From Clostridia bacterium (GTDB taxonomy: Bacteria > Bacillota > Clostridia > Oscillospirales > CAG-272), in assembly GCA_017450965.1 (NCBI GenBank), contig JAFSSQ010000010.1, forward strand, positions 6,424-70,423: a stretch of DNA of 64,000 nucleotides, read 5' to 3'. Below the pieces are notes generated by a model that had not been told where the DNA came from, did no database searches, and saw only the letters and a program-made list of their open reading frames with translations. Below, one piece after another: positions 2 to 38,305 of the stretch. The number at the start of each line of letters is the position of its first letter. The stretch's first letter is position 1. Position numbers and translations under genes: made by a program.

Positions 2-559
2 AAGATCCGCTGCCGGAACACGAAGGACTCGGTCGAGTTTCTTCTCGACGGGGCAAAGGTGGATCACTATCTCTCCGTGACGATGGATTTCGTCGTCGCC
101 GGGTGCGATCTGGTCGGCGGCGTGGAAGTTACGGTGCTCGACGATTTCACCGGGATCGACGACGCGCTCGTCAAGGGAAAAACGGTCACGCTGACCGGCG
201 AGCAGGCGCTCCGGTACGTCCGCACGCGCTACGGACTGGAGGACAGCACCAACCTCCGGCGGATGGAGCGGCAGCGGCAGTATATCAACGCCTGGTACGC
301 GAAAGCCGTTTCCCGGATCAAAGAAGACTCGGCCTTTGCGCTTGAGCTGGTCGATACCCTCGGCGATTACGTCGTGTACGATTCTTCCGAACACCGGCTG
401 CAGAAGTTTGCGGAAAAGTTTGACCGGTACGAGTTTCTCGGGATCCGGGAACCGGAAGGCCGGACCGAAGTCGGCGAGGAGTTTCTCGAGTTTTATCCGG
501 ACGAGGAGTCGCTTCGGCAGCTTGTGATCGATCTCTTTTACGAGCCGGCGGGCGCATAA
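2..559 (+). CDS. LCP (LytR-CpsA-Psr) family polysaccharide-peptidoglycan transferase, 5'-truncated by window edge
   Basis: Frame open from position 2. LTGEQALRYVRTRY...RRMERQRQY matches the LCP catalytic-arginine region. Sits at the head of a polysaccharide locus. Confidence 0.9.
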   Translation, partial: KIRCRNTKDSVEFLLDGAKVDHYLSVTMDFVVAGCDLVGGVEVTVLDDFTGIDDALVKGKTVTLTGEQALRYVRTRYGLEDSTNLRRMERQRQYINAWYAKAVSRIKEDSAFALELVDTLGDYVVYDSSEHRLQKFAEKFDRYEFLGIREPEGRTEVGEEFLEFYPDEESLRQLVIDLFYEPAGA

Positions 560-1981: not shown

Positions 1982-2842
1982 TTGAGAGTTGTTATCCTTG
2001 GCAAACAAAGCTATATCGGTAACCATGTCGGAGACTGGCTTGCTTCGCGGGAAGAAAGCGTGAGTGTGGATTATGTGGATTCTTACACGCAATGGGAGAC
2101 GTATGATTTTTCCGGTGTTGACTCCGTGATCCACGTGGCCGGGATCGTACATCATCCGGAAATAACGGATTGGGACATTTACAGACAAGTCAATGTGGAT
2201 CTGCCCTTGGGTGTAGCGTCCAGGGCAAAAGCGGCCGGGGTACACCAGTTTGTTTTTTTTAGCACTATGGGGGTTTATGGCAGAGGGAAGAGACTAAAAC
2301 CCAACTATATAACAAAAGACGATACTCCAAACAGTAAGACTCCGTATGGAAAAAGCAAGTATATGGCCGAACAAGGGTTGCGGGAGCTTGAAGGCCAAGA
2401 CTTCAAAGTCGTCGTCATTCGGCCGCCTAATGTTTATGGGAAAGGGTGCCCGGGAGGCTATATTTCCGGGTTCATGTCTGTGGTAAAGCGGTTGCCGAGC
2501 ATTCCTGCCTGCTATGAAAATGTAAAACAGAGCATGATTTACATCGACAATCTATGCGAACTGGTGAGATATATCGTTAAGAAAAAGCTGGACGGAGTTT
2601 TTGAACCCCAAGACGAGAATGCCGTAAGTGCTGTTGAATTAATGATGGGAATCGCTTCGGGCATGGGGTTAAAGAGAAAAAAGTCCAGACTGCTTGGGAT
2701 CTGCGTAATGCTTTTCTCGTTTTTGCCGATTGTAAAAAAAGCTTACGGCGGAATAGAATATGAAAAAAACAAATCGGTATTCACCGGTTTCCATTACGTA
2801 GTGACTGCTTTTGATCAGGCAATAAAAAACACGGTTTCTTGA
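1982..2842 (+). CDS. NAD-dependent epimerase/dehydratase (extended SDR)
   Basis: GKQSYIG nucleotide-binding start, FFSTMGVYG, YGKSK (YxxxK), IRPPNVYG. TTG start with upstream GAGG. Confidence 0.88.
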   Translation: MRVVILGKQSYIGNHVGDWLASREESVSVDYVDSYTQWETYDFSGVDSVIHVAGIVHHPEITDWDIYRQVNVDLPLGVASRAKAAGVHQFVFFSTMGVYGRGKRLKPNYITKDDTPNSKTPYGKSKYMAEQGLRELEGQDFKVVVIRPPNVYGKGCPGGYISGFMSVVKRLPSIPACYENVKQSMIYIDNLCELVRYIVKKKLDGVFEPQDENAVSAVELMMGIASGMGLKRKKSRLLGICVMLFSFLPIVKKAYGGIEYEKNKSVFTGFHYVVTAFDQAIKNTVS

Positions 2843-2855
2843 GGGAGAACAAGGC

Positions 2856-3518
2856 ATGAAAATAATGGCGATCGGAGCACATCTTGACGATATTGAGATT
2901 GCGTGCGGAGGAACGCTGGCAAAGGCGCTTCAAGCGGGTCATGAAGTCAAAGTGCTTGTCATGAGCAAATCCGGATACACAAACAAAGAAGGAATTGTTC
3001 AACGGCCTGATGAACTTGCCGTGAAAGAAGGATTGGAAGCGCTTCAAACATTAGGTGTGTCAGACATTGAGATTCTTGATTTCCCGACAAAAGACATTCC
3101 GTTTTGCTCTGAGGTGGTAAATGCCATAGATGTACGGATGGCGAAGTTTAACCCAGACGTTATTTTTACTCATCATCCGTTTGATACTCATCAGGCGCAT
3201 GAAGGTGTGGCAAAGGCAACGATTGCGGCGGCACGAAGAAAGAACACCGTGTTTTTTTACGAACCGATTACTCCTTCCGGGCGTTCCTATGTTCCCTTTA
3301 AACCGTCGCTATACGTAGATATAGAATCCACGCTTGATAAAAAAATAGAATCTTTGAAGTGCCACAAGAGCGAGTACAATAAGTTTGGAGCCGAAGATTG
3401 GATCGAAGGTGTTCGGTGCCGTTGCGGATTCCGCGGATATGAAATCGGGAAGAAGTTTGCTGAAGCGTTTGAAATTCTGCGACTTGAATTGAGCTTTGAA
3501 AAAAGAGCGTTGATATGA
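2856..3518 (+). CDS. PIG-L/LmbE family de-N-acetylase
   Basis: GAHLDDIEIACGGTL and THHPFDTHQAH metal-binding motifs; SLKCHKSE; AEAF. Confidence 0.9.
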   Translation: MKIMAIGAHLDDIEIACGGTLAKALQAGHEVKVLVMSKSGYTNKEGIVQRPDELAVKEGLEALQTLGVSDIEILDFPTKDIPFCSEVVNAIDVRMAKFNPDVIFTHHPFDTHQAHEGVAKATIAAARRKNTVFFYEPITPSGRSYVPFKPSLYVDIESTLDKKIESLKCHKSEYNKFGAEDWIEGVRCRCGFRGYEIGKKFAEAFEILRLELSFEKRALI

Positions 3519-4741
3519 TAGATTTTCGCCGCCAAGATATACGTAAGCTTGAAACCGAGTTTGGTATTCCGTTATATGTATTTGACGAAGCTGCTTTTAT
3601 CCATAACTATTTCAAGCTTGAAACGGCTCTTAGACAATACTATCCGAAATACCGGGTATCATACTCCTTTAAAACGAACTATACTCCATATATGTGTTCC
3701 GTTGTAAACAGACTGGGCGGTTATGCCGAAGTGGTTTCGGGGATGGAATACGATATTGCCAAGAGAGTTGGATTCGCAGCCGAAAAGATAATCTTTAATG
3801 GTCCGAACAAGGGGGAAGACGGGGTTAAAGCGCTGCTGGATGGTTGCATTGTCAACGTTGATAATTTTGACGAGTTGGATTTGGTATGCCGGATAGTTAA
3901 TGAGCATCCGGAGACAAAGTTTGAGATCGGCTTGCGTGTTAATATTGACGTCGGTCAGACTTTTATTTCGCGCTTCGGTATGGATACCACGGAATTGGAT
4001 AGAGCTTTTGAGATTGTGGATCATGTTGATAATCTGGAGGTTGTCGGTCTCCACTGCCATATCAGCCGTTGCAGAGGTGTAGACGTGTGGCGGGAGCGCA
4101 CAAGGGTAATGTTGGAGCTGTCAGATCGTTATTTTTCAAACAGGCAACCGAAATATATTGACTTAGGAAGCGGAATGTTCGGGGAAATGGACGCTGAGCT
4201 GAAAGCGCAGTTCGGCGTAGTTCCTTCTTATGATGATTATGCAGAAGCGACAACAAAACAGATGGCAGAGCATTATAGCAGGTATACCGATCATCAGAAG
4301 CCCGTTTTGTTCACGGAGCCCGGAACAACGCTTATCAACAAGTACGTTGATTTCATAGGAAGGGTAGACGCTATTAAATCGATCAAAGGAAAGACTTTTG
4401 CCATACTGAATTGCAGCGAGCACAATTTAGGCGAGACTTGCACCCTTAAAAAGTTGCCCGTGAAGGTCGTGCATTCCGGACCGCGCTCAAAATATTACAA
4501 AGACGTTGATTTGGTCGGTTATACTTGCCTTGAGCAAGATGTTATGTATGCAGAATACAGCGGATATCTTGCGCCCGGAGATTATGTGCAGTTTGGTAAT
4601 GTGGGCGGTTACTCCAATGTTTACAAGCCGCCGTTTATATGGCCGAACTGTGCAATGGTAGTTAAGAAAGAGACCGGAGAGTATCAGGTAATAAAACGCA
4701 AAGAATCATATGCTGATATTCTTCACACATATGCGTTTTAA
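3515..4741 (+). CDS. PLP-dependent group IV (diaminopimelate/ornithine decarboxylase-like) decarboxylase
   Basis: YSFKTN (PLP lysine), FNGPNK, GLHCH, DLGSG, EPG, GYTCLEQD, GGYS. ATGA overlap with the PIG-L gene. Confidence 0.85.
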   Translation: MIDFRRQDIRKLETEFGIPLYVFDEAAFIHNYFKLETALRQYYPKYRVSYSFKTNYTPYMCSVVNRLGGYAEVVSGMEYDIAKRVGFAAEKIIFNGPNKGEDGVKALLDGCIVNVDNFDELDLVCRIVNEHPETKFEIGLRVNIDVGQTFISRFGMDTTELDRAFEIVDHVDNLEVVGLHCHISRCRGVDVWRERTRVMLELSDRYFSNRQPKYIDLGSGMFGEMDAELKAQFGVVPSYDDYAEATTKQMAEHYSRYTDHQKPVLFTEPGTTLINKYVDFIGRVDAIKSIKGKTFAILNCSEHNLGETCTLKKLPVKVVHSGPRSKYYKDVDLVGYTCLEQDVMYAEYSGYLAPGDYVQFGNVGGYSNVYKPPFIWPNCAMVVKKETGEYQVIKRKESYADILHTYAF

Positions 4742-4755
4742 GCGAGATTAGGAAG

Positions 4756-5796
4756 ATGGAACAGCTCAGAGATATAACGGTGATGATTACAGCTGCGGGC
4801 AACGTGTTTATGCCGGGAACAACCGCGTGCCTTACAGAGAACGGGGAGAGAAATCTTCGATTGATCGGTGTGGATATGAATCATGATCCCAGCATATTAC
4901 AGATGTGTGATACGTATTATCCCGTACCGCGCGGAGATGATCCGGGTTATATCGATACACTTTTCAATATCTGTGAAAAAGAGCATGTTGAGATTGTTTT
5001 GCCTATTATGACAATCGAGCTGAATGCTTTAGCTAGAAACAGAGCAGGATTTGAAGCAATCGGAACAAAGCTTTCTGTCTCGGATACAGCGGCCCTTGAA
5101 ATTGCAAATGATAAAATCAAGTTATTTGATTTTATGGTTCAGCACGGAATCCGTTGCGCAGATTACAAGAGCGTTCACAATATGGAAACGTTTGAGAAAG
5201 CGGTAAAGGAGCTCGGATATCCTTATAAACGTATCTGTGTAAAGGCAACGAACGGGAGCGGAAGCAGAGGATTCCGGATCATAGATGAAACGCGAACTCG
5301 CTTTCATGCGTATATGCATGAGAAACCGAGTTCGTGTTATATCAGACTGTCCGAGATGGAGGAGATACTGGCGGAAGCCGACGAGTTTCCCGAATTGATG
5401 ATAATGGAGTACCTTCCCGGAAACGAGTATACCGTAGATTTGTTGGCGGATAAAGGAAAGGTATTATACTGTTGCTGTAGAAAAAGTCTTGGTATGGATA
5501 ATGGCATCATGCTGAACAGCGAGGTCGTTGAGAACAATGCTGTCGAAGCGTTATGCAGGGAAGTAACCGAGGAATTGAAACTTGAGGGGAATATCGGATT
5601 TGACGTTTTAGAAAGAGAAGACGGCACTCCCTTTATAGTCGAATGTAATCCCAGACTTACAGCGGGAATCCCCGTGTTCAGAATGGCAGGAGTAAATCTG
5701 CCGTATTTGAATGTAAAAAGACTGTTGGGAGAAAAGCTCCCGGATTGCAAGCCAGAGGTTGGTAAGATTGTAAGGCGACGCTGGCTTGAAATGTGA
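4756..5796 (+). CDS. ATP-grasp domain protein (carbamoyl-phosphate synthase-like)
   Basis: ANDKIKL, VKATNGSGSRG, MEYLPGNEYTVD, FIVECNPRLTAG. Confidence 0.88.
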   Translation: MEQLRDITVMITAAGNVFMPGTTACLTENGERNLRLIGVDMNHDPSILQMCDTYYPVPRGDDPGYIDTLFNICEKEHVEIVLPIMTIELNALARNRAGFEAIGTKLSVSDTAALEIANDKIKLFDFMVQHGIRCADYKSVHNMETFEKAVKELGYPYKRICVKATNGSGSRGFRIIDETRTRFHAYMHEKPSSCYIRLSEMEEILAEADEFPELMIMEYLPGNEYTVDLLADKGKVLYCCCRKSLGMDNGIMLNSEVVENNAVEALCREVTEELKLEGNIGFDVLEREDGTPFIVECNPRLTAGIPVFRMAGVNLPYLNVKRLLGEKLPDCKPEVGKIVRRRWLEM

Positions 5797-9862: not shown

Positions 9863-11008
9863 ATGAGAATTATTATGCCCTCTTTTGAACCTTTAGAATG
9901 GATGCCGCCGACAATTAATCTTTTGAAAAAACTTGACGCAGCAGGACACGAAGTTGTGTTTATAACCATTTTCCCGTGCGAATATCTAAAAAAAATGAAC
10001 CTTTCTCGCGCAAGCAATGTTTCGCTTTGCTCCAGAAGGATATCTTTTCAAGATAAGGTAAAATATACGCCGGTTTTATCAGGCTTTTTATATCGGGTCG
10101 ATACAATGATAAAGAAGAGCATCGCCAGACGCTTGAGAAACGTGATTGATGAGGAGCTGAATAAGGGCGGTAAGCTTTGGATAGTCAATGAAATGACAGT
10201 TCTTCTCGCGGGCGCTCATTGTATCAAAAATCACGAGTTTGCTTTTTTGATTTATGAATTGCATGAGGATCTATTCTATGCAAGAAACATAAAAAAAGTT
10301 GCGCAGAAAGCCTCGGCGGTTGTTGTTCCGGATTATTTCAGAGCACACATTATGAAAAGCCGGTATAACTTAAAGCAACTTCCATTTGTTTTGCCGAATA
10401 GGTCGGATATTGATTTTGAAAAAATGTTTGAGACGGAAAGGAACAAAAAAGCGATAGAACAGATAAAACTCTCCAAGGCTGAAGGAAATAGAATTCTTGT
10501 GTATATGGGTGGTGTAAATCAAGAACGTCCTCTTGAAGGCCTTCTTGAAGCAATACAAAGAATCGGCTCATGGAAACTTGCCATTATTGGCAAGCCATCG
10601 CAATATTTAGATGAATTACAGAGAGAATACAGCGAGTGTATCCTTAACCTTGGCGCTTTTTCTCCGCCCGATCATCTGACAATAGCACAGTTTTGCGATA
10701 TAGGCGTATTGAACTATGTCAGTATTAACAAAAAACAAGGATTGAACGCAATCTTTTGTGCGCCGAATAAGATTTATGAGTATACGGGGCTTGGTCTTCC
10801 GGTGATTGGCAACGATATTCCGGGTTTGCGGTTTTGTATTTCAACAAGTATGTGTGGCGAACTGGTAGATTATGATGATCCTTCTTCAATTGAAACGGCG
10901 TTAAATACTATCGTAAATCGATATGAGGAATACTCGGAAGCAGCAAGAGATTTTTATAGGGCCACCAATACCGATGAAACGCTAAAAAGAATAATAAGTG
11001 CGGTTTAG
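9863..11008 (+). CDS. GT4-like glycosyltransferase, visibly AT-richer than its neighbours
   Basis: LVYMGGVNQERPL and CAPNKIYEYTGLGLPVIGNDIPG. Start placed at ATG 9863 (MRIIMPSFEP). Confidence 0.82.
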   Translation: MRIIMPSFEPLEWMPPTINLLKKLDAAGHEVVFITIFPCEYLKKMNLSRASNVSLCSRRISFQDKVKYTPVLSGFLYRVDTMIKKSIARRLRNVIDEELNKGGKLWIVNEMTVLLAGAHCIKNHEFAFLIYELHEDLFYARNIKKVAQKASAVVVPDYFRAHIMKSRYNLKQLPFVLPNRSDIDFEKMFETERNKKAIEQIKLSKAEGNRILVYMGGVNQERPLEGLLEAIQRIGSWKLAIIGKPSQYLDELQREYSECILNLGAFSPPDHLTIAQFCDIGVLNYVSINKKQGLNAIFCAPNKIYEYTGLGLPVIGNDIPGLRFCISTSMCGELVDYDDPSSIETALNTIVNRYEEYSEAARDFYRATNTDETLKRIISAV

Positions 11009-11114
11009 AAGAGAAAGGTTAAGTATTTTCGCTGACCGATCTGCTGTTATATGGGGCGTTGAGCTATATAACGTTTGCCTTTTTTGAATGCGAATGTAGA
11101 GTTTCGCAATTCAA

Positions 11115-11399
11115 ATGTGGGTAAAAATTTGCTTTTTTGCATTTAAACTATCTTATATAGCCTATCTCGGCCAGCTGATCACGGGGGCGGAGATGGCGAT
11201 ATGCAACTATTATTATAAAACTTCTCCTTTGAGCCGCAAAGAACGGCTCGATGCGCTGCAAACCCTTTGCGGCGACGAGTATCTCCGGGCCGCGATAACC
11301 GAATACGGCGCGGACAGAAAGAGCAAATGGATTCTGGGCAGAAAATACCTTTCCCTGATCTTATACGCAAAACTTGCCAATCTGAAGCACGGGAGATAA
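11115..11399 (+). pseudogene. Probable C-terminal remnant of a glycosyltransferase
   Basis: AICNYYYKTSPLSRKERLDALQTLC...RKYLSLILYAKL resembles the helical tails of GT2 enzymes. No catalytic N-terminus and no convincing start/RBS. Composition changes near 11160. Confidence 0.45.
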
Positions 11400-11429
11400 G
11401 AAAGCGAGATTGACAGAAAGGAGCGGTCC

Positions 11430-12989
11430 ATGCCTAAAATCAGCGTTATTATGCCGGCGTATAACGCGGAAAAGTATATCGGAGAAGCTATTGACAGCAT
11501 TTTGAATCAGACTTTTACCGATTTCGAGTTTATTATTCTTGACGACGGATCTGTCGATCACACGGCGGAGCTTGTTGCGGGATATTCGGATCCCAGGATC
11601 CGTTTCCTGCAGAACGAGCGCAACTTGGGCGTGGCCGAGACCTTGAATAGAGGGCTACAGCTCGCCGCCGGGGAATACGTCGCCCGGATGGATGCCGACG
11701 ATATCGCGATGCCGACCCGCTTTGAGAAGCAGATTGCCTATATGGAGGAGCATCCGGACGTCGCCGTTTTGGGGACGGGGATCGAGGTATTCGGAGCGAA
11801 ACGTCATACGACCGTTTTTTCTCAATCATACGAGGAACTGAAGATCGATCTGCTTTTTGCGTGCTGCTTTGCGCATCCTACCGTTATGATGCGGACGGAG
11901 TTATTGCGAAACGGCGGTTACGCTTACGATCCTTCCTTTAACAGGATGGAAGACTATGACCTTTGGGACAGGATCTCGGAGAGATATTCCATCGCCTCGA
12001 TCCCGGACGTTTTATTGCGCTACAGAACGCATCCCCTGCAGGTCACGCACAAAAAAACGCCGGAAGACGTCCGGCAGATCCGGGAGATCAAGAAAAGGCA
12101 GCTTGCAAGGCTGGGGATCGAGACCGCCGGAGAGGGCGCGGAATGCTTTTTTGGCTGCTGCGACGGGAGTTTTTCGCCGACAAAGGAAAACGTTCTCCTT
12201 CTGAATCAATTCTTTCAAACCCTCAGGCGGAGCAACGCCGAAAGGCGGGTTTATCGCGTCAGTCTTTTAAAAAAGCATCTGAAGAGCGTTTCCGCCAATC
12301 TCCTGGATAAGCTGCCGCTTTCGGAGGCGATCGCTCTTTCGGGCCGCTGCGGAGTTTGCGGTATTCCTTATGCGGCCAAGCGATCAGTCCGCGGACTTTT
12401 TTCCCGGGTAAGGGGAAAAAGACAGCAAAAGAGGCGGCAGGCAAGACTGAAAACCAAGGATTTTTCCATCCTTTGCAATAACTGCTGGGGCGGTTTCCTT
12501 TATCAGTTTTTCGGGTTGCCGTATCGAACGCCGACGGTGGGACTTTTTTTTCTCGGAAGGGACTTTGTCAAGTTCGCCGCCGATTTTGAGCGCTATCTCG
12601 CGCAAGAGCTCGTCTTCATCCCATGGGAGAGCAGCGCGTACTACGACTTTCTGAAAGACGAGACCCCCTATCCGGTCGCAAAGCTGGATGATATCGAGAT
12701 CTATTTCATGCACTATCATTCCGAAGAGGAAGCGCGGGAAAAATGGAACAGGCGCAAAGAACGGATCAACCGCGATAAGCTGCTGTTCAAGCTTTCCGAG
12801 CGGGAGGGCTGCTCGAGAGAAGACGTTGAACGGTTCGTTGCCCTTCCCCTGAAAAACAAAATCTGTTTCAGTTACGACCGGGTGGAGGGAGCGATCCGCG
12901 TCCCGGAGCTGGAGGGATTTGTCGGCGATGAGACGCCGCTTGTCGAGCCTTACTACGACAAATTCGAACTGCTGAACGGTATTAGGTGA
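11430..12989 (+). CDS. GT2 glycosyltransferase fused to a DUF1919-like domain
   Basis: N-terminal ISVIMPAYNAEKY, DDGSVD, RMDADD, EDY. C-terminal FSILCNNCWGGFLY...TPTVGLF, FMHYHSEEEAREKWNRRKERIN. Confidence 0.85.
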   Translation: MPKISVIMPAYNAEKYIGEAIDSILNQTFTDFEFIILDDGSVDHTAELVAGYSDPRIRFLQNERNLGVAETLNRGLQLAAGEYVARMDADDIAMPTRFEKQIAYMEEHPDVAVLGTGIEVFGAKRHTTVFSQSYEELKIDLLFACCFAHPTVMMRTELLRNGGYAYDPSFNRMEDYDLWDRISERYSIASIPDVLLRYRTHPLQVTHKKTPEDVRQIREIKKRQLARLGIETAGEGAECFFGCCDGSFSPTKENVLLLNQFFQTLRRSNAERRVYRVSLLKKHLKSVSANLLDKLPLSEAIALSGRCGVCGIPYAAKRSVRGLFSRVRGKRQQKRRQARLKTKDFSILCNNCWGGFLYQFFGLPYRTPTVGLFFLGRDFVKFAADFERYLAQELVFIPWESSAYYDFLKDETPYPVAKLDDIEIYFMHYHSEEEAREKWNRRKERINRDKLLFKLSEREGCSREDVERFVALPLKNKICFSYDRVEGAIRVPELEGFVGDETPLVEPYYDKFELLNGIR

Positions 12990-12993
12990 AAAT

Positions 12994-13977
12994 ATGGCAA
13001 AGGTATCGGTCATCGTTCCTGTATATAACGTTCGGGACTATCTTTCCGGCGCGGTGGAGTCTTTGCTGCGGCAGACGGAACGGGATATTGAGATCATTTT
13101 GGTAGACGACGGCTCAACGGACGGTTCCGGCGCTCTCTGCGATCGGTTTGCCGAACGGGATAAGCGGATCAAAGTGCTCCACAAGGAAAACGGCGGCCTC
13201 TCTTCCGCAAGGAACGCCGGCGCAAAAGAAGCGTCGGCGGCGTACGTGCTGTTTTTGGACGGGGACGATTACCTCTGCGACGACGCCGTGGAGACGCTTG
13301 CGCTTGCTTCCGACCGGTATCACCCGGACGTTGTCCAGTTTCTTTACAAAGAGGTCGAAACAACGGGACGGCAGTCCCGGCACGAGACGGAAAGCTGGAC
13401 GGCTTTTACGGCGAGCGAGCCGGCGGCGCTGTTTGAAAATCTGTACCGGCTCGGCGGCGTGGCCGCTTCCGGCTGCACAAAGCTGATCAAAAGGCAGCTC
13501 GTTTTGGACTTTCCGTTTGAAAAGATCCGCCACGAAGATGAGATGTGGTGTACCAGAGTTTTTCCTACCGGTATTACGGTACTCTACCTTCCCGACGTTC
13601 TCTATTGCTATGTGATGCGGGAAGGCAGCATCATCCACGCGGAGTTTCATTCAAGCAAGCTGGATGCTTTCAAGGTGCAGGAGGAACGGATCCGAGTATT
13701 GAGCGATCTGTCTTTGCACAATTTGGTTGAAAGAGAATATGCGAAGATGTTTCTTTCGGTGCTGCTTTTATACCGCGAAGCCTTTCGGTGCGGTGACGAA
13801 CACGGCTGCAGCGCCATGAAAGAGCAGTTTCAAAAAAACAAAAAAGCAATGCTGCGCAGCAGATACATAAAAGGGAAATATAAGATCCTGCTGATGCTTA
13901 TGACACGGAGCTTTTCTTCGGTTAAGTTGTTTGTAAAGCAACAACGACTATCAAACGCTGAAAAAGCCGAAATATGA
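12994..13977 (+). CDS. GT2 glycosyltransferase
   Basis: VSVIVPVYNV, VDDGSTDGS, ENGGLSSARNAG, FLDGDD, HED. Confidence 0.93.
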   Translation: MAKVSVIVPVYNVRDYLSGAVESLLRQTERDIEIILVDDGSTDGSGALCDRFAERDKRIKVLHKENGGLSSARNAGAKEASAAYVLFLDGDDYLCDDAVETLALASDRYHPDVVQFLYKEVETTGRQSRHETESWTAFTASEPAALFENLYRLGGVAASGCTKLIKRQLVLDFPFEKIRHEDEMWCTRVFPTGITVLYLPDVLYCYVMREGSIIHAEFHSSKLDAFKVQEERIRVLSDLSLHNLVEREYAKMFLSVLLLYREAFRCGDEHGCSAMKEQFQKNKKAMLRSRYIKGKYKILLMLMTRSFSSVKLFVKQQRLSNAEKAEI

Positions 13978-14090: not shown

Positions 14091-15653
14091 ATGAGAACGA
14101 AAAACTCAATTATCAATATTTTCACCGGTCTGGTCGGTCAAATCGTGGTTGCGATAGCCGGTTTCGCCGGCAGAACGGTTTTTATCCACGTATTAGGGTC
14201 AACGTATCTTGGCGTCAGCGGCTTGTTCAGCAATATCCTTACCTTACTTTCGTTTGCCGAGCTGGGAATCGGACAGGCCATCGTTTTCAGTCTATATAAG
14301 CCGATCGCCGAAAACGACGAAGACAAGATCTGCGCTTTGATGCGGCTGTACGAAAAGGCGTACCGGTTTCTTTTCTTTCTTGTGTTGGGCATCGGCTTGT
14401 TTATTCTTCCGTTCCTTCCTTATATCATAAAGGATATCGATTCCATTCCCAACATACGAACGATTTATTGTTTGTACGTGATCAACTCGGCGGCGTCGTA
14501 TCTGTTTTCTTATCGCAGCACCTTTATCACGGCCAGCCAGAAGAACTATATTATCAATATCTTTTACGTTGCAAGCACGATTTTGATGACGGTATTCCAG
14601 ATTGCCGGTCTTCTGCTTTTCAAAAACTATTTCGTTTATTTAGGGATTCAAATCGCTTTCGGTGTGATCCAGAACGTCTTTTCTTATATCTACTCCAGCC
14701 GGAAATACCCGTTTTTGAAAAGAAAAGACGTGCCGCCGCTGCCCGACCAAGAGTTCAAAAGTATCAAGAAAAACGTCGGTGCCCTGATCATCTATAAAAT
14801 CGGAACGCTTGCGCTGAACTCGACGGATAACATTATCATCTCCGCATACGTAGGGCTCATCGCGGTAGGACTGCATTCCAACTACGTTTTGCTTACCTCC
14901 GTCGTAGGAGCCTTTCTTTCTACGATTTTCGGAAACTTAACGGCCAGCATCGGCAATCTGAACGCTACGGAGACGACAGAAAAGAGAGTTCATATTTTCA
15001 ACGTCCTTAATTTTGCAACGTTCTGGTTCTATTCCGTTTGCTCCATTTGCCTGTTCGTGTGTATGACTCCCTTTATTTACGCGTGGATCGGGGAGGAGTA
15101 CGTTCTGCCGCTTTCCGTATCGTTGATCGTGGCGATCAATTTCTATATAGCCGGGATGCTGTTCGCTCCCTTCAATTTCAGGCAGACCATGGGATTGTTC
15201 GTACAGGGGAGAATGCGCCCGATTATTTCAGCGGTGATCAATATCGGGGTATCCATTTGGTTTGCTATCCTTTGGGGACTGCCCGGCGTTCTCTGGGGTA
15301 CGGCCGTAGCGCGGCTTACGACAAACGTGTGGTTTGACCCCTATCTGATATTCAAAAAAGGACTAAACGTTTCGCCGGTCCCCTATTTTATCGATTATAT
15401 CAAGAAGTTTTTGCTTTTCCTTTTGATGGGCTTTGTTTGCTGGTACGTTTCAAGCAAGATATTGCTTACAAGTATTCTGGGGGTCCTGATAAAGGCCATC
15501 GTTTCTTTCGTGATATGCAACGGCGTGATTTTGGCGCTTTATTCCAGGACAAGCGAGTTCCGATACCTGAAAAGCGTGCTGGTAAACATCAGATCGATTG
15601 TGGCGAGGAAAAAGAATGACTCTGATTCAACGGTTGAAAAAACTCAGGATTGA
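14091..15653 (+). CDS. wzx: Wzx polysaccharide flippase
   Basis: MRTKNSIINI...LSFAELGIG...LYKPIA; about 12-14 hydrophobic segments. Confidence 0.88.
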   Translation: MRTKNSIINIFTGLVGQIVVAIAGFAGRTVFIHVLGSTYLGVSGLFSNILTLLSFAELGIGQAIVFSLYKPIAENDEDKICALMRLYEKAYRFLFFLVLGIGLFILPFLPYIIKDIDSIPNIRTIYCLYVINSAASYLFSYRSTFITASQKNYIINIFYVASTILMTVFQIAGLLLFKNYFVYLGIQIAFGVIQNVFSYIYSSRKYPFLKRKDVPPLPDQEFKSIKKNVGALIIYKIGTLALNSTDNIIISAYVGLIAVGLHSNYVLLTSVVGAFLSTIFGNLTASIGNLNATETTEKRVHIFNVLNFATFWFYSVCSICLFVCMTPFIYAWIGEEYVLPLSVSLIVAINFYIAGMLFAPFNFRQTMGLFVQGRMRPIISAVINIGVSIWFAILWGLPGVLWGTAVARLTTNVWFDPYLIFKKGLNVSPVPYFIDYIKKFLLFLLMGFVCWYVSSKILLTSILGVLIKAIVSFVICNGVILALYSRTSEFRYLKSVLVNIRSIVARKKNDSDSTVEKTQD

Positions 15654-16770: not shown

Positions 16771-17225
16771 AGAAGATCATCGGATATACGACCGGCGTCT
16801 ACGATATGTTCCATATCGGGCATCTCAACGTGATCCGCCGGGCAAAAGAACAATGCGACTACTTGATCGTCGGCGTCAGCACGGATGAACTGGTCGAAAA
16901 GGATAAGGGAAAACGGCCGGTCATCCCGTTTGAGGAACGCGCCGAAATCATCAAAGCTCTGCGTTTTGTGGATGAGGTCGTTGCGCAGCCGGACAAAAAC
17001 AAGTTTGCCGCGTGGGAACGCTATCATTTCCAGAAAATGTTTGTCGGCGACGATTGGAAAGGAACCCCGCAGTGGAACGCGTTTGAAAAGCAGTTTGCGC
17101 CGGTCGGCGTGGAGATCGTGTATCTTCCGCACACGGACGGCGTTTCCAGCACGAAGCTGACGGGCGTGATCAAGGAAATGCTTGACGAGCATCCGGACTT
17201 TAACGGCAACGCCGACAAGAGGTGA
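16767..17225 (+). CDS. tagD: Glycerol-3-phosphate cytidylyltransferase
   Basis: GYTTGVYDMFHIGH (HxGH), VGVSTDE, VGDDW, YLPHTDGVSST. ATGA coupling to the TagF-family gene. Confidence 0.9.
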   Translation: MKKIIGYTTGVYDMFHIGHLNVIRRAKEQCDYLIVGVSTDELVEKDKGKRPVIPFEERAEIIKALRFVDEVVAQPDKNKFAAWERYHFQKMFVGDDWKGTPQWNAFEKQFAPVGVEIVYLPHTDGVSSTKLTGVIKEMLDEHPDFNGNADKR

Positions 17226-17231
17226 TAGGAT

Positions 17232-17816
17232 TTGAAAAACTGGTTACTCGCCCTGAAGATCCTGTTTCCGGAATATATGACGCTGATTTTGCTTGCCGGC
17301 GGCAGCTTCGTTCTCTGGCGCTTGCTCGCGGCAAAGTTCCGCGGCCGCGCCGCGTGGAGGGGCGTCCATATCGTTTTGTCTGTCCTGGCTGTCGCGGGGA
17401 TCCTCCGGTTTTCCGTGTTCGGCAGAGAGAGCGACGGGGCGCGCCGGTTCATTCTGTTTGCGGACAGCGAACCGTGGGATTTTATTCCGGAGTTATACCG
17501 GAACCTATTCCTTTATTATCCGCTGGGGCTTTTCCTGCCGCACGCGATCGGCGGGGAAAAGACCGCCCGGCGGCGCGGGATCTGCGTTTTGTCGGCGTTT
17601 TTGCTCTCGGTTGCGGTGGAGGCGTGGCAATACGCCTTCGGGACCGGGGTCGCTCAGCTTTCGGACGTGCTGATGAATACGGCGGGCGCGGCGATCGGGG
17701 CGGCGTCTTGCGCCGGAGTATCCCGCGCGGGAGCGAAAACCCGGCTTGTCCTCTGCAAACGTCAGAGTACGGGCGGCATCGGCAACGAAAACGTTTCAAG
17801 AGAGAATCTGTCATGA
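17232..17816 (+). CDS. VanZ-like membrane protein
   Basis: NLFLYYPLG...SVAVEAWQY...DVLMNTAGA motif set. Confidence 0.8.
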   Translation: MKNWLLALKILFPEYMTLILLAGGSFVLWRLLAAKFRGRAAWRGVHIVLSVLAVAGILRFSVFGRESDGARRFILFADSEPWDFIPELYRNLFLYYPLGLFLPHAIGGEKTARRRGICVLSAFLLSVAVEAWQYAFGTGVAQLSDVLMNTAGAAIGAASCAGVSRAGAKTRLVLCKRQSTGGIGNENVSRENLS

Positions 17817-18845
17817 AACAAAAGAACCGGACCATATCCGCGATCCGTATGCTGGCGACCTTGATGGTTGTGACGTTACATATTACCCAGCGTTTGGAGG
17901 GTCGCTTTGACCGTCTCCACTATGCGACAGACTGGCTGAACCTCGGTCTTGTGATGTTTTCAGCATTTCCGGATTCTTATACGCCAATCGGGACGTGGAA
18001 AACCGGGGCCGGTGGTTTCGGCACAGACTCGTCGAATTGATTGTGCCCGGCGAGATCACCGTTGTCCTGACCGTTGTTTTCTATTCTTTGCTGGTGGGGA
18101 AAATCAGTTTCGGGAAGATCCTGATCTCTCTTGCCTCCGGTCTCGGTCTGGAAGCGTTTCTCCCCGACGGCTGGATGTTTATCCAGTTGTGGTTTTTGAC
18201 ATACATCATAGTCTGTTACGCTACCGTCCCCTGGATACAGAAGATCGACGTAAAACGGATGCGCCCGCTCGCGTTTTGGGGGATGCTGGGCGGAATGACC
18301 GTTTTGCTGCAGGGGACCGGCTCGCTGCTTTCCCTGCGGTTTGGTTTTCCCTCCCTGAGTTGGGGCGTTTTGCTGCGGTTTTATCTTGCCTATTTTGTTT
18401 TCCGGCGTTATCCGATCGAAAGCAAAACGTGCAGGAAGGTGATGACCGCGCTCTCCGTTGTTTCCGCGGCGCTCATAGCGGGCGTGAGCTTTGTTCGCTA
18501 CGGCATAGCTCCCGCGGGGGGGGGGGGACAGGCGCGCCGGCGGAACTGTTCTTTATTTACACGCAGACCTTTGCGGGAACCGTCCTGTTTTACTGGCTGT
18601 TTCAGGCGTTCAACAAAGCAAGGCCGCCCGAGATCATTCTCGAGATCTCCGATCGGTATTCGTTCCCGGTCTATTTAACACATTGTCTTTTCATCGGATA
18701 CAGCACCTCGGTCATAGATAAAGCGCCCGGCGTGGGATCGGGAATACTTCTGGCGCTCGGATGCACCGCGATCGCAAGCGTGATTTTGGAGTATCTGAAT
18801 CGCTTGGCGCATCGCTTGATCAAACGCGGCGACAAGAGCGGCTGA
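17813..18845 (+). pseudogene. Acyltransferase-3 (OafA-like) polysaccharide O-acyltransferase with two frameshifts
   Basis: Starts MKQKNRTISAIRMLATLMVVTLH. One more T in the T4 run at 17957-17960 restores MFFSISGFLY. The G12 run at 18516-18527 is out of frame; G10 or G13 joins it to ...YSFPVYLTH... and the stop at 18845. Confidence 0.85.
18516..18527 (+). repeat. G12 homopolymer tract (candidate slipped-strand switch)
   Basis: cccgc-GGGGGGGGGGGG-acaggc, exactly at the frame junction of the acyltransferase. Confidence 0.85.
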
Positions 18846-18984: not shown

Positions 18985-20493
18985 TCAGGGCAGGGTGATC
19001 TCGGCGCTGACCGTGCCGCTCACAGCGTCCCAGGAGTCGACCGCTTTGACAAGGACGCGGTAGGACCCGGCTTTGTCCATCGTGATCGAATAGGTAAAGG
19101 TCTTCTGCATCTCCGCCGCGGTCGCGCGGGCGTAGAAATCGCTGACGGCGAGGACGGTCTTTTCCGTTTTGCCCGTGGCGGTATCCACGACCTGCATTTC
19201 GTAGTGGTGGACGAAGTCGTCGTCCGTGCCCGCCGGGAGGGAGAGAGTCAGGGTGTGCCCGTCGCCGGCCGTCAGCGTGAGCGGGCCGGAGAGGGAGGGC
19301 GCGGCGTTCGCCGCTTCCCGTTCGGCTCTGCGGTAGAGGGTGAGGTGCGAGCCGTCCGCCTGCGGAGCGGGGAGCTCCCACGCCGTTTTGATCTCCTTCT
19401 TTTCGGAGAAGAGCAGGCGGGTGATCCGGACGTTGCCGCCTTCGTCGATCTGGACGAGCAGCCCGGTCGAAACGTCTCCGTTGGGGACGGCGAGCTGCGT
19501 CTTGTCGTTTTCCATGTTGTCGTACTTTTCGAGCTCAAAGGCGGTGTTCGAGGTGGAGCCGCAGTTGACCGCGGTAAAGGCGGTCTGCATGATGGAGCGC
19601 TCGTCGAAGACCGGCGTGTGGGTGTGTCCGGTGAAGACGATGACCTGCGGATATTTTTCCAGGACCGCCCCGAGGTTTTCGGTGCGCCAGCGGCTGTGCC
19701 CCGGCTCGTGATCCGCCTCGCTGCCGTAGGTCGTGTCCGCGATCGTCGGATGCGTTACCACAAAGACGTAAGAGGAGGGATCCTTTGCCGTGAGATCGGC
19801 AAGCGTATGGTCGATCCAGGTCAAAACCTCCGCGGCAAAGGGCGTGCCGTAGCCGTAGCTCGCCGGCTCCACGATGAGGAAATGATACCCGAAGAGGACG
19901 CTGTGCCGGTATCCTTTTTCCAGATCGGAGTCAACGTCCATCGCGTAGTAGTCCGCGCCGAGGTACGTTTCCTTCAGCGAGGGCTGGAAGGTCAGGGTAG
20001 AGCGGGTGTCGTGATTGCCGACGGCGACCAGCACGTTCGTTCCGAGCGATTTTGCTTTGTAATCGGAGAGGATCGTCGCAAAGCGCGAGATCTCCAGGTT
20101 GGCCGACTTGTCGCCTTTCGAGGTGTTGGAGACCATATCGCCCGCGACCACGAGCCCGCGCAGACCGTTCGGGTCGGACTTGGCGGCCTCGGCCAGCAGC
20201 TGGTTCAGCGCGTTGGTGAACATCCCCTTGTTTTTGGTCGCGCTGACGCTGATATGCACGTCGGAGATCGCGCCGAAGGAGAAGACGATCTTCGTTTCGT
20301 CAAACGACGGCAGGGGCTCTTTTTCCGCGGGAGCGGTCTCCTCCGGCGCCGTCTCGGCGGGGGCGGTCGAGGGCGTTTCCGTCAGCGCGCCGGTCTCTTC
20401 CGGCGGGAGGGCCGGATCGGCGGCGCAGCCGCAGCAGCCGATCATAGCGGCAAAGGACAGCAGGATAAAGAAAAGCGGGTGTTTGTGTTTCAT
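18985..20493 (-). CDS. Lipoprotein, calcineurin-like metallophosphoesterase with C-terminal beta domain
   Basis: Signal peptide ending MIGCCGC, PETA-rich linker, then ISDVH, AGDM, GNHD, THP, GHTH motifs. Confidence 0.85.
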   Translation of the reverse strand: MKHKHPLFFILLSFAAMIGCCGCAADPALPPEETGALTETPSTAPAETAPEETAPAEKEPLPSFDETKIVFSFGAISDVHISVSATKNKGMFTNALNQLLAEAAKSDPNGLRGLVVAGDMVSNTSKGDKSANLEISRFATILSDYKAKSLGTNVLVAVGNHDTRSTLTFQPSLKETYLGADYYAMDVDSDLEKGYRHSVLFGYHFLIVEPASYGYGTPFAAEVLTWIDHTLADLTAKDPSSYVFVVTHPTIADTTYGSEADHEPGHSRWRTENLGAVLEKYPQVIVFTGHTHTPVFDERSIMQTAFTAVNCGSTSNTAFELEKYDNMENDKTQLAVPNGDVSTGLLVQIDEGGNVRITRLLFSEKKEIKTAWELPAPQADGSHLTLYRRAEREAANAAPSLSGPLTLTAGDGHTLTLSLPAGTDDDFVHHYEMQVVDTATGKTEKTVLAVSDFYARATAAEMQKTFTYSITMDKAGSYRVLVKAVDSWDAVSGTVSAEITLP

Positions 20494-20560
20494 CGTTTTT
20501 TCCTCTGTTCTACCTTCCGGGCGGTTTCGCCCGGCGGATCGTTTCAATTGATTTCAGTTT

Positions 20561-20589
20561 ATCATATCACAAACCGGCGGGAAAAGCAA
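20561..20589 (-). promoter_or_regulatory. SigA-type promoter for the phosphoesterase
   Basis: TTGCTT-N17-TATGAT with a TG extension, on the minus strand. Confidence 0.6.
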
Positions 20590-20698
20590 TTTTTTTCTTC
20601 CCGCCCGGGCAACAAGCGGTAAAAAGACGCCAAGAATAGGCAAAAAAGCCGCCGCCGCTTTCCGCTTTGGCATATCTTGCAAAACTGCGGGAAGGCCC

Positions 20699-32542: not shown

Positions 32543-33451
32543 TTATCCGATCTCAAACGCCGCCAGCAGCCGCCGGAACGTGTCCTGCCCGTCGAGACAG
32601 GTGTCGGTAAGCCAGCCCTTTTCGTTCTCCCATTCGGCGAGCCCGCGATAATAAAATGCCTTTTTGCCGTCCTCGATGAGGAAGGGAACGATCCGGTACC
32701 GCAAGCACTCCTTGAGCGCGATCAGCCGCCCGACGCGGCCGTTTCCGTCCTGGAACGGATGGATCTTTTCAAACGCCGCGTGGAAGGCGACGATATCTTC
32801 CACGGAGATTTCCGGTTTCGCGTTGTAACCGGCGAGCAGCTCTTTCATCCGCGCCGGCACGTCTTTCGGCTTCATCGTTTCCCGCCCTCCCACAACGTTG
32901 GGGCGTTTTTTGTACTCTCCCACGGCAAACCAGGCAAGCGTGGAATCTTTTGTGTCGTGTTTCAGGATAAAGTGCAGTTTTTTGATGATCGCCTCGGAGA
33001 GCGGTTCCTCGGCGCAGTCGATCACGTAATCGATGGCGCGGAAGTGATGTACCGTCTCCAGAACGTCGTCGACCGGAACGCCGTCGCCGATAGTCAGCGT
33101 GTTCGTTTCGTAGATCAGACGCGTCTGATCCTCGGTCAGACGGCTGCCTTCGATATGGTTGGAGTTGTAGGTCATACGCACCTGCAGCTCGTGATACAGA
33201 CCGCCCGAGAGTTTCGCTTCTTTTTCTTCGCGCAGGGTCTGCAGGATCGGATTGTCCGAGATTTCACGGACGAGGTCTTCCGGACGGCACACAAAGAAAG
33301 CGGCGAGCTTTTTCATCACGGCAGGGGAAAGTTTTTCGCCCTTGCCGATCTTGGCGACCGTCCGCGACGAGAGCCCGAGCAGCCGTGTCAGATCCGATCG
33401 CCCGATCCCGCGCTCCTTCAGTTTTTCTTCAAGCCCATGGTAGGAAATCAT
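32543..33451 (-). CDS. Fic family protein with N-terminal Cro/C1-type HTH
   Basis: Canonical HPFQDGNGRVGR and TYNSNHIEG; N-terminal HTH (LTRLLGLSSRTVAKI). Confidence 0.93.
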   Translation of the reverse strand: MISYHGLEEKLKERGIGRSDLTRLLGLSSRTVAKIGKGEKLSPAVMKKLAAFFVCRPEDLVREISDNPILQTLREEKEAKLSGGLYHELQVRMTYNSNHIEGSRLTEDQTRLIYETNTLTIGDGVPVDDVLETVHHFRAIDYVIDCAEEPLSEAIIKKLHFILKHDTKDSTLAWFAVGEYKKRPNVVGGRETMKPKDVPARMKELLAGYNAKPEISVEDIVAFHAAFEKIHPFQDGNGRVGRLIALKECLRYRIVPFLIEDGKKAFYYRGLAEWENEKGWLTDTCLDGQDTFRRLLAAFEIG

Positions 33452-33475
33452 AGCTATCCCCCTTCATCTTTACTT

Positions 33476-33504
33476 ATTATAGCACAAAGGACGCAAAAAG
33501 TAAA
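33476..33504 (-). promoter_or_regulatory. Promoter of the Fic gene
   Basis: TTTACT-N17-TATAAT with extended -10. Confidence 0.55.
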
Positions 33505-33580
33505 GATTTCAGGCAAAAAATCCTCTGAAAAGGAAAGATTCCCTCCGGCCGCGGCGAAACCGCGCCCGGAGGGAGGGAAG

Positions 33581-33620
33581 AAGCCCCCGGCTGCCCGATG
33601 AACGAGCCGGGGGCTTTTGC
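33581..33620 (-). terminator. Hairpin ending the RM-island operon
   Basis: aagcccccggct/agccgggggctt stem; a second hairpin lies at 33539-33579. Confidence 0.6.
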
Positions 33621-33638
33621 TTTTATACGTTATAATTA

Positions 33639-34403: not shown

Positions 34404-34411
34404 TTTTTCAT

Positions 34412-38205: not shown

Positions 38206-38305
38206 TTTTATTATCTCCAATTCTTACTATTCGTTCAGTATTTGAGTATTTCAACGGATAGAACAAGTTTCATTTTGCAGAGAGCGGCGAGGACAACGCG
38301 GTAAA

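Follow-up and report, generated by a model that had tools for sequence, protein, structure and literature searches.

The window, the whole stretch of 64 000 nucleotides that was analyzed, comes from a rumen-type Clostridia genome and carries a Wzy-type locus of low GC for a wall or capsule glycan. In this locus, three genes lie tightly packed on the plus strand at positions 2856–5796. The first (2856–3518) encodes a soluble zinc de-N-acetylase of the PIG-L/LmbE family (PF02585; 220 amino acids), the second (3515–4741) a LysA-like PLP decarboxylase of fold type III, the alanine-racemase fold, with Orn_Arg_deC_N and Orn_DAP_Arg_deC domains (408 amino acids), and the third (4756–5796) an ATP-grasp amide ligase of the PRK12767/PylC-like_N/ATPgrasp_Ter type (346 amino acids). 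The PIG-L and decarboxylase reading frames overlap by 4 nt, and a gap of 14 nt separates the decarboxylase gene from the ligase gene. Upstream on the same plus strand are the genes of a short extended SDR resembling RmlD and GalE (1982–2842; Pfam Epimerase/RmlD_sub_bind) and of a GT4 glycosyltransferase (826–1971; Pfam Glycos_transf_1/Glyco_trans_4_2). Between 1982 and 5796, one gene follows directly on another; no gap exceeds 14 nt, and none holds a small open reading frame. The locus also encodes a glycerol-phosphate transferase and an LCP ligase; given the LCP ligase gene, the polymer may be wall-anchored rather than a 'capsule'. A UDP-sugar dehydrogenase gene was found neither in the locus nor in the 6.4 kb upstream, and the single one of this genome is on a different contig. 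A DegT aminotransferase and a 4,6-dehydratase are both absent from the locus. The decarboxylase gene sits in an island of 44–47% GC in a genome of 62% GC, and this glycan island is horizontally acquired.

The PIG-L protein scores 81.4 bits against PF02585, compared with a gathering threshold of 28.2, and its metal-binding and catalytic motifs are intact (AHLDD at residues 8–12 and HHPFDTHQAH at approximately residues 106–115). Its best NCBIfam model is BshB1 (TIGR04001), where the score of 82.2 bits is under the equivalog cut-off of 182.5. The SDR retains the GxxxxIG, S-T-M and YGKSK motifs, and its top PDB matches are GalE and Cap5F; it is a candidate nucleotide-sugar epimerase or 4-reductase that would act as an accessory member of the cassette. 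Close homologues of the GT4 protein (505 bits) are encoded directly 5′ of the PIG-L gene in two other loci, L012 and L013, with weaker ones in L059 and L073.

The decarboxylase exceeds the cut-offs of both of its Pfam domains, with 80 bits for Orn_Arg_deC_N (PF02784) and 24 bits for Orn_DAP_Arg_deC (PF00278). It has the N-terminal PLP-binding barrel, the C-terminal beta domain and the catalytic residues of fold-type III (group IV) decarboxylases, and the catalytic set K53, H182, E268, C338, D342 and Y366 is invariant in its family. The closest NCBIfam model is lysA (TIGR01048); however, the score of 142.9 bits is below the equivalog cut-off of 297.9, whereas genuine LysA proteins from five congeneric genomes reach 389–428 bits. 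The sequence-only reading had pointed to three departures from the LysA consensus, HCHISR, DLGSG and EPGT. These departures are real. They lie in the segments GLHCHISRCRG, YIDLGSGMFG and FTEPGTTLIN, and H182, I183, S184 and R185, D216, G218, S219 and G220, and E268, P269, G270 and T271 are invariant in 28 family members. Although LysA has the same fold, the residues with which it binds DAP (DxxRPxxY and the Glu of GPxCESGD) are missing from the decarboxylase in the alignment. The segments at these positions are SEHNLGETCTLK and GYTCLEQD, in which CESGD is changed to CLEQD, and these substitutions vary little or not at all within the family. Searched against the PDB, the family profile matches FigC (7kh2) with 157 bits, ahead of DAPDC (137), BtrK (98) and SbnH (66), whereas a single-sequence search with the window's decarboxylase put DAPDC at the top. 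Judged by its sequence, the decarboxylase belongs to a distinct DAPDC-related family that is not LysA, in line with the earlier reading.

Two other assignments of the decarboxylase were considered. Weak Ala_racemase_N matches in some homologues had prompted a racemase reading, which was dropped in view of an invariant Cys loop and an invariant C-terminal domain of the decarboxylase type. Regarding a substitution for lysA, the window's own genome (98% complete) has no canonical lysA, and the decarboxylase gene is its sole TIGR01048-like gene. However, a genome of the same genus that is also 98% complete (G002) has neither lysA nor the cassette, so the cassette is not a compensation for lysA loss; the missing DAP motifs likewise led us to reject this assignment.

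The ligase is composed of PylC-like_N, ATP-grasp_3 and ATPgrasp_Ter domains, and the matches to PF15632, PF02655 and PF21360 are all above their cut-offs. The Lys expected of an ATP-grasp enzyme, K120, does not vary among 121 homologues, and E296, N298 and R300, which make up the E-x-N-x-R motif for Mg/ATP, hardly vary. The AF2 model calculated with the 121-sequence alignment has a pLDDT of 96.6. With this model, Foldseek ranked 2pn1, a structure with no assigned function, first and PurK, biotin carboxylase and L-amino-acid ligases next, with E values down to 1e-24; apart from 2pn1, these are generic ATP-grasp folds that give no clue to the substrate. The ESM Atlas search returned only the ligase's own unnamed family, and no characterized close relative of the ligase was found. 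Longer proteins with an ATP-grasp domain (P0332, P0372, P0341 and P0269) lack an informative extra domain. In L012, an ATP-grasp protein in a Pyl-like context has the same Pfam architecture as the window's ligase and is homologous to it at 81 bits, as a distant paralogue.

To follow the triad through other genomes, as the sequence-only reading had proposed, we compared 87 related loci, of which 65 have room downstream of the decarboxylase and 26 are well flanked. A scan of genome contigs with one protein had given three loci only, and an alignment-based scan of metagenomes was more productive. Metagenomes of the rumen and the human gut frequently contain the cassette, with at least 539 confirmed matches. 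Ruminococcus sp. JL13D9, a carrier in culture, has the ATP-grasp homologue WP_407725174.1; for protein P0140 of this strain, no contig position was found. The ligase gene is directly 3′ of the decarboxylase gene in 64 of the 65 loci, across phyla, and 25 of the 26 well-flanked loci contain a PIG-L gene. The other frequent partners are a small SDR (a homologue in 11 of the 26) and a transferase, which is either a small PGT (21 of the 26) or a GT4. DegT occurs in only four of these loci and a UDP-sugar dehydrogenase in only three, with L010, L074 and L080 having one near the cassette. The order PIG-L, decarboxylase, ATP-grasp is seen again in unrelated contigs and is thus not due to chance; together with the tight packing, it bears out the earlier view that the three coupled genes inside the glycan locus form a functional unit. 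The cassette occurs in Wzy-type and in ABC-transporter-type clusters. All of the loci examined are glycan loci in which it lies beside a dedicated PGT or GT4, and no other transferase class, such as a phosphotransferase or an acyltransferase, recurs in them. A TagF-like glycerophosphotransferase was considered as a regular partner, which would have given a design rule for zwitterions, and was rejected since it is present in three loci only.

A tree of the decarboxylases unites the ligase-linked genes in a single clade (73 rows; support, 100), within which the PIG-L-adjacent genes, the window's included, group as a clade of their own (16 rows; support, 97). In the clade closest to the window, a PIG-L orthologue (>370 bits) is encoded immediately 5′ of the decarboxylase. 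The PIG-L proteins of more distant loci are remote homologues only (35–70 bits), sometimes encoded several kilobases away, so they could be tied more loosely to the decarboxylase–ligase pair. SDR homologues are directly 3′ of the ATP-grasp gene in many distant loci. As a correction to the three-gene view, the conserved unit also takes in the SDR gene at 1982–2842, and its invariant core is the decarboxylase–ligase pair. The sister clade of decarboxylases has no ligase and is found beside a class IV aminotransferase and an HpcH-like aldolase; these relatives may therefore act on free small molecules.

The window's decarboxylase has the same fold as the FigC/FslC N-citrylornithine decarboxylase, SbnH, AcsE, MccE and BtrK, and the PLP lysine, the stacking His, the EPG Glu and the Cys loop are common to all of them. 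FigC and the window's enzyme also have in common the motifs NGPxK and SRFG, a short loop and the pattern C-hydrophobic-polar-polar-D in the Cys loop. Both lack the DAP-binding residues, and each has the gene of an amide-forming ligase as a neighbor. There are also differences. The partner of FigC is an NIS synthetase, and that of the window's enzyme is an ATP-grasp ligase. FigC-type enzymes are encoded in siderophore, antibiotic or microcin clusters, whereas the window's enzyme is encoded in a glycan locus. In the window's family, the EPGR motif invariably has Thr in place of its arginine, and the glycine loop invariably reads GSG, in contrast to the FigC group. Finally, the predicted substrate of the window's enzyme is a sugar conjugate. 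All of the characterized DAPDC-related decarboxylases that are unrelated to polyamines take conjugated amino acids (PMC7857480).

The butirosin system (BtrI/BtrJ/BtrK) pairs an ATP-grasp enzyme with a DAPDC-like decarboxylase, as in the window. BtrK reportedly converts a γ-linked glutamyl group to 4-aminobutyrate. The butirosin enzymes use an acyl carrier protein, whereas the window's cassette encodes none; no carrier protein gene was found between the cassette genes or among the called genes of L010–L013, and the tether that we propose is the sugar amine. Of the butirosin-type logic suggested in the sequence-only reading, the decarboxylation of an already ligated amino acid therefore fits, with FigC as the best solved match of the family profile and with conjugates as the substrates of all characterized members of that clade other than DAPDC (PMC7857480), and the strict analogy to BtrJ/BtrK fails because a carrier protein is not encoded. 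The Pyl pathway resembles the predicted role of the cassette, since its ATP-grasp enzyme is encoded beside a small phosphoglycosyl transferase and N-acylates an amino sugar. In Bacillus cereus, Pyl is said to N-acylate a UDP-amino sugar with a dicarboxylic acid, 2-oxoglutarate, to give UDP-yelosamine. However, the amine of the Pyl pathway is introduced at C4 by a DegT-type aminotransferase, and that of the window would be exposed by PIG-L de-N-acetylation; the Pyl pathway also has no decarboxylase. The mycothiol (MshA/B/C) and bacillithiol (BshA/B/C) pathways group a GT4, a PIG-L and an amide-forming enzyme in the same way as the window, although all scores lie far under the cut-offs of these families, the class of ligase differs and the product is a thiol and not, as predicted here, a polymer decoration. 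In both thiol pathways, the amide-forming step comes after deacetylation. To our knowledge, the deacetylase acts after GlcNAc transfer in all of the characterized PIG-L pathways (GPI, mycothiol, bacillithiol and paromamine).

We propose that the SDR, PIG-L, decarboxylase and ATP-grasp genes (1982–5796), probably with the upstream GT4 gene, constitute a cassette that edits, in the cytoplasm, the N-substituent of one hexosamine in the wall or capsule polysaccharide. By 4-epimerization or 4-reduction, the SDR would determine how the nucleotide sugar is configured. First, PIG-L would strip the N-acetyl group from a HexNAc, either as a UDP-sugar or as an undecaprenyl-PP-linked intermediate, leaving a free amine. 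Second, the ATP-grasp ligase would convert a carboxylate into an acyl phosphate and then form an amide with the freed amine. The acid is most likely to be L-Glu or L-Asp, joined through its side-chain carboxyl so that a free α-amino-acid end remains. Third, the PLP decarboxylase would take the α-carboxyl off the tethered amino acid, acting on a conjugate in the way of FigC, SbnH, AcsE, MccE and BtrK. The product would be an N-(4-aminobutanoyl)- or N-(β-alanyl)-type substituent with a primary amine. In a variant of this scheme, the decarboxylase would act first, on free Glu or Asp, with an identical end product. The GT4 is a candidate transferase for the sugar that undergoes editing or for the edited donor. 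With the glycerol-phosphate transferase of the locus, the aminoacyl group would make the polymer cationic or zwitterionic. The replacement of acetyl by a GABA- or β-alanine-like acyl group, one of two branches offered by the sequence-only reading, fits the near-universal presence of PIG-L (25 of 26 well-flanked loci). We favor this route to a cationic N-acyl group, from the amine freed by PIG-L through Glu or Asp ligation to decarboxylation, as a quite plausible but tentative reading.

The other branch of the sequence-only reading placed a decarboxylated amine on a uronic acid. In its wider form, the decarboxylase would make an amine or a diamine, with which the ATP-grasp ligase would amidate a sugar carboxyl (a uronic acid, pyruvate ketal, lactyl ether or nonulosonic acid), and PIG-L would be separate, for example merely exposing GlcN. 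Such chemistry has parallels. In methanofuran synthesis (MfnA/MfnD), the decarboxylase acts first and the ATP-grasp enzyme then uses the resulting amine, so the reverse polarity also has precedent. ATP-grasp amidoligases reportedly amidate glucuronate in the Campylobacter jejuni HS:2 capsule, and the decarboxylase of that system is said to have another fold. However, a glucuronamide system of the HS:2 type needs a UDP-glucose dehydrogenase, which the window's locus lacks. The UDP-sugar dehydrogenases elsewhere in the genome and near the cassette in L010, L074 and L080 are consistent with a uronic acid acceptor, but three of 26 well-flanked loci is a low count, and the uronamide alternative is disfavored. 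The amidation of a sugar carboxyl also leaves the PIG-L genes unexplained, and the decarboxylase profile is nearest to the conjugate-acting FigC and not to ODC, LDC or ADC. We consider this explanation unlikely.

The acyl group could also be a diamino acid joined through its α-carboxyl. Here, meso-DAP or a related acid would be ligated to the freed sugar amine and then decarboxylated distally, or Lys would first be made from DAP, and an N-lysyl-type substituent would result. DAPDC is the second-best relative of the decarboxylase profile, canonical lysA is missing from the genome, and the structural search with the ATP-grasp model also brought up L-amino-acid ligases; these three points would suit such a substituent. 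However, the binders of the distal carboxylate and amine of DAP (RPxxY and the Glu of CESGD) are gone, with replacements that are invariant in the family, the ligation of DAP and its decarboxylation to lysyl would be an odd detour, and G002 argues against a compensation for lysA. A diamino acid is thus unlikely too, and slightly more so than the amidation of a sugar carboxyl. It is less probable still that the decarboxylase and the ligase produce a soluble small molecule (for example, an amine joined to an acid as an amide) that a further enzyme puts on the glycan or that is never linked to it; the aminotransferase and aldolase beside the sister clade suggest small-molecule chemistry, but every locus examined is a glycan locus with a flanking PGT or GT4 and no further recurring transferase. 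Lastly, a housekeeping enzyme, the cell's own diaminopimelate decarboxylase or another, placed in the locus by accident is highly improbable, since against the lack of a second TIGR01048-like gene stand the score of 143 bits (cut-off, 298; LysA of congeners, approximately 390–430), the absent DAP-binding motifs, the low-GC island and the linkage to ATP-grasp across phyla.

With somewhat less confidence than the chemistry itself, we put forward as a possibility that ligation followed by decarboxylation on a de-N-acetylated sugar yields a novel substituent and is a horizontally mobile, widespread route to cationic charge on the capsules and wall polysaccharides of Bacillota and Bacteroidota from gut and rumen. 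In the literature, no papers on a deacetylase–decarboxylase–ligase cassette came up in searches for the gene triad, and a search for polysaccharides with a β-alanyl or 4-aminobutanoyl N-acyl group gave only carnosine papers and no report of such a polymer. The charge of surface polysaccharides helps to set how the immune system recognizes them, how phages adsorb and how well cells resist cationic peptides, and zwitterionic capsules from gut commensals are known immunomodulators. The cassette is spread over several phyla and passes between loci of the Wzy and ABC-transporter types, with a function predicted from its genes. If the proposal is true, it would provide a second, amide-based route to zwitterionic glycans, alongside free-amine sugars such as AATGal. 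It would add a new sugar substituent, make sugar conjugates a new class of substrates for DAPDC-related decarboxylases and supply the first function for the large PRK12767 'carbamoyl-phosphate-synthase-like' ATP-grasp family, and it would correct the routine annotation of such genes as 'diaminopimelate decarboxylase'.

The window (G000:C72:6424–70423) derives from the source genome G000, an assembly of 2.07 Mb that is 98% complete, and it begins with an island of 44–47% GC (1 to ~19000), against ~60–65% GC in the rest of this genome region. Taken with the adjoining 6.4 kb upstream, this island makes up a glycan locus of the Gram-positive Wzy type. It encodes, in order, Wzz/CpsC, a CpsD-like ATPase, a CpsB phosphatase and an LCP ligase (window 2–559), followed by a GT4 (826–1971), a short SDR (1982–2842), a PIG-L deacetylase (2856–3518), a fold-III PLP decarboxylase (3515–4741) and an ATP-grasp ligase (4756–5796). 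The last three genes lie where the sequence-only reading had placed them, which confirms that observation; PIG-L overlaps the decarboxylase by 4 nt, and the ligase follows after 14 nt. Three glycosyltransferases, a Wzy-like polymerase, three further glycosyltransferases, a 520-aa protein without a Pfam match and a TagF-like glycerophosphotransferase come next. The locus ends with a broken acyltransferase-3 in two frames (17222–18040 and 18012–18845), of which a weak C-terminal Pfam match is all that remains. A GT2 domain and DUF1919 are fused in one 519-aa protein (11430–12989), and no Pfam match was obtained for ORFs 14091–15653 and 19204–20622 or for a 251-aa ORF in the upstream sequence (L017:5195–5950). 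Pfam scans detected no initiating phosphoglycosyl transferase (PGT) of the Bac_transf type in the window or in the upstream ORFs; most related loci carry one, and initiation here may rely on a gene located elsewhere. A second low-GC island (~40% GC, 32543–38220) encodes an HTH-Fic protein, a 254-aa protein without a Pfam match, a type III restriction Res helicase and an N6/N4 DNA methylase.

The decarboxylase retains the catalytic set of the alanine-racemase-fold decarboxylases (Lys53, His182, Glu268, Cys338, Asp342 and Tyr366). Its sequence identifies it as an enzyme other than LysA. It scores 143 bits on the LysA model TIGR01048, against a cut-off of 298, and the true LysA proteins of five same-genus genomes score 389–428 bits. 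In place of the LysA motifs DxxRPxxY and GPxCESGD, the window enzyme has SEHNLGETCTLK and GYTCLEQD, respectively. The departures HCHISR, DLGSG and EPGT, pointed out earlier from the sequence, are indeed present and are invariant in 28 family members. When these 28 members are used as a profile, the top match among solved structures is FigC (7kh2; 157 bits), followed by diaminopimelate decarboxylases (DAPDC; 137 and 127 bits), BtrK (98 bits) and SbnH (66 bits). The window enzyme shares NGPxK, SRFG, a short loop ahead of SRFG and a similar Cys loop with FigC/FslC. DAPDC falls in one clade with FigC, SbnH, AcsE, MccE and BtrK, and each of the latter five decarboxylates an amino acid whose side chain is already joined to a larger molecule (PMC7857480). 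No canonical lysA (TIGR01048 above cut-off) was found in G000, G002 or G005, the sole genomes of the genus that are >90% complete (97–98%); five less complete congeners carry one. Since G002 has neither lysA nor the cassette, the cassette decarboxylase is no replacement for lysA. The absence of lysA from these three genomes may reflect a lineage-specific lysine auxotrophy.

The ligase belongs to the PRK12767/PylC-like_N/ATPgrasp_Ter group. An AF2 model built from an alignment is of excellent quality (pLDDT 96.6), and among 121 homologues Lys120 is invariant and Glu296-x-Asn298-x-Arg300 nearly so. The nearest structure is 2pn1, a protein of unknown function, with PurK, biotin carboxylases and L-amino-acid ligases next in line, so structure gives no clue to the substrate. 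The PIG-L protein has the AHLDD and H-x-x-H motifs and no membrane segment, and is BshB-like, yet it scores far under the BshB cut-off. The SDR has intact NAD and YxxxK motifs and a weak likeness to GalE and Cap5F.

The decarboxylase family is large, with more than 100 clusters at 55–72% identity to the window protein, nearly all unnamed metagenome proteins; of the first 600 pattern matches in a metagenome scan, at least 539 were confirmed as relatives. It is rare in species representatives, where a match (E ≤ 1e-60) came from 4 of the 398 other genomes of the class that were scored, all paralogues of ~42% identity. We compared the neighbourhoods of 87 loci; because several are near-duplicates, the counts do not represent independent observations. 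The ligase lies directly 3′ of the decarboxylase in 64 of the 65 loci with room downstream. Among the 26 loci whose sequence extends 2.5 kb or more upstream and 6 kb or more downstream, PIG-L occurs in 25, a small monotopic PGT in 21, a homologue of the window SDR in 11, a 4,6-dehydratase in nine and a DegT aminotransferase in four. More distant ligase-linked loci have the order PIG-L, PGT, decarboxylase, ligase, SDR, or have PIG-L a few kb downstream. One of them, L067, also carries UDP-L-FucNAc-type genes and is probably from Bacteroidota, as a TonB-dependent receptor adjoins it. The cassette is found in both Wzy-type and ABC-transporter-type clusters. Two of the latter have a second PIG-L, a CapE/FnlA-like 4,6-dehydratase and an NTP_transf_5 protein near the cassette (L010:10449–13391; L011:6632–7306 and 10315–13567), which hints at a second edited sugar.

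In a quick maximum-likelihood tree, 73 decarboxylases, nearly all ligase-linked, form a clade with support of 100. Nested within it is a group of 16 (support 97) whose genes lie immediately downstream of an orthologous PIG-L gene; the window protein falls in this group, beside contigs of rumen Clostridiales and Oscillospiraceae. Six others form a separate clade (support 100) that lacks the ligase; a small PGT accompanies them, joined in most loci by a class IV aminotransferase. The sister-clade loci (L003, L004, L095, L097, L099, L100 and L103) encode a paralogous decarboxylase of ~41–43% identity and have neither ATP-grasp nor PIG-L. In the five metagenome loci the decarboxylase is followed by the PGT and aminotransferase; in L003 and L004 these two lie beside it, with an HpcH/HpaI-like aldolase on the opposite side. 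The sister clade could represent another, equally uncharacterised way of placing an amine substituent on glycans.

From the observed gene families, motifs and linkage, we infer each step of the cassette chemistry. PIG-L would de-N-acetylate a sugar to give an amine, which the ligase would acylate; the near-constant PIG-L partner points to this amine as the ligase nucleophile. Because the PLP decarboxylase needs a free α-amino acid end, the acid would most simply be Glu or Asp joined through its side-chain carboxyl, and its decarboxylation would leave a 4-aminobutanoyl or β-alanyl amide. Decarboxylation of free Glu or Asp before ligation would give the same product. Editing could take place on a UDP-sugar or on a lipid-linked sugar, and the adjoining dedicated PGT or GT4 fits both. 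The predicted decarboxylation would match the BtrK reaction, with a sugar in place of the carrier protein. Precedent for acylation of this kind comes from Pyl of Bacillus cereus, an ATP-grasp enzyme encoded next to a small PGT, which makes UDP-yelosamine by joining a dicarboxylic acid to an amino sugar. In L012 (1677–4153), a DegT aminotransferase gene and a small PGT gene precede a second ATP-grasp, which is shorter (314 aa) and scores 81 bits against the window ligase; this layout resembles the Pat/Pyl/PGT arrangement of UDP-yelosamine synthesis.

Amidation of an amine onto a uronic acid, the second branch of the sequence-only reading, is disfavoured: the source genome does have one dehydrogenase, but on another contig, and a UDP-sugar dehydrogenase is found in 3 of the 26 loci and is absent from the window locus. 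N-aminoacylation with a diaminopimelyl or lysyl group is unlikely, as the decarboxylase is missing the diaminopimelate motifs, and synthesis of a soluble small molecule by the cassette is also an unlikely alternative. A housekeeping LysA is, for practical purposes, ruled out by the bit score and the same missing motifs.

A literature search, thin on subscription journals, found no papers on this gene set or such a sugar substituent. The enzyme families and their logic are already known from butirosin, NIS siderophores and yelosamine. What appears to be new is the combination of enzymes, together with its predicted sugar substrate and its predicted product.
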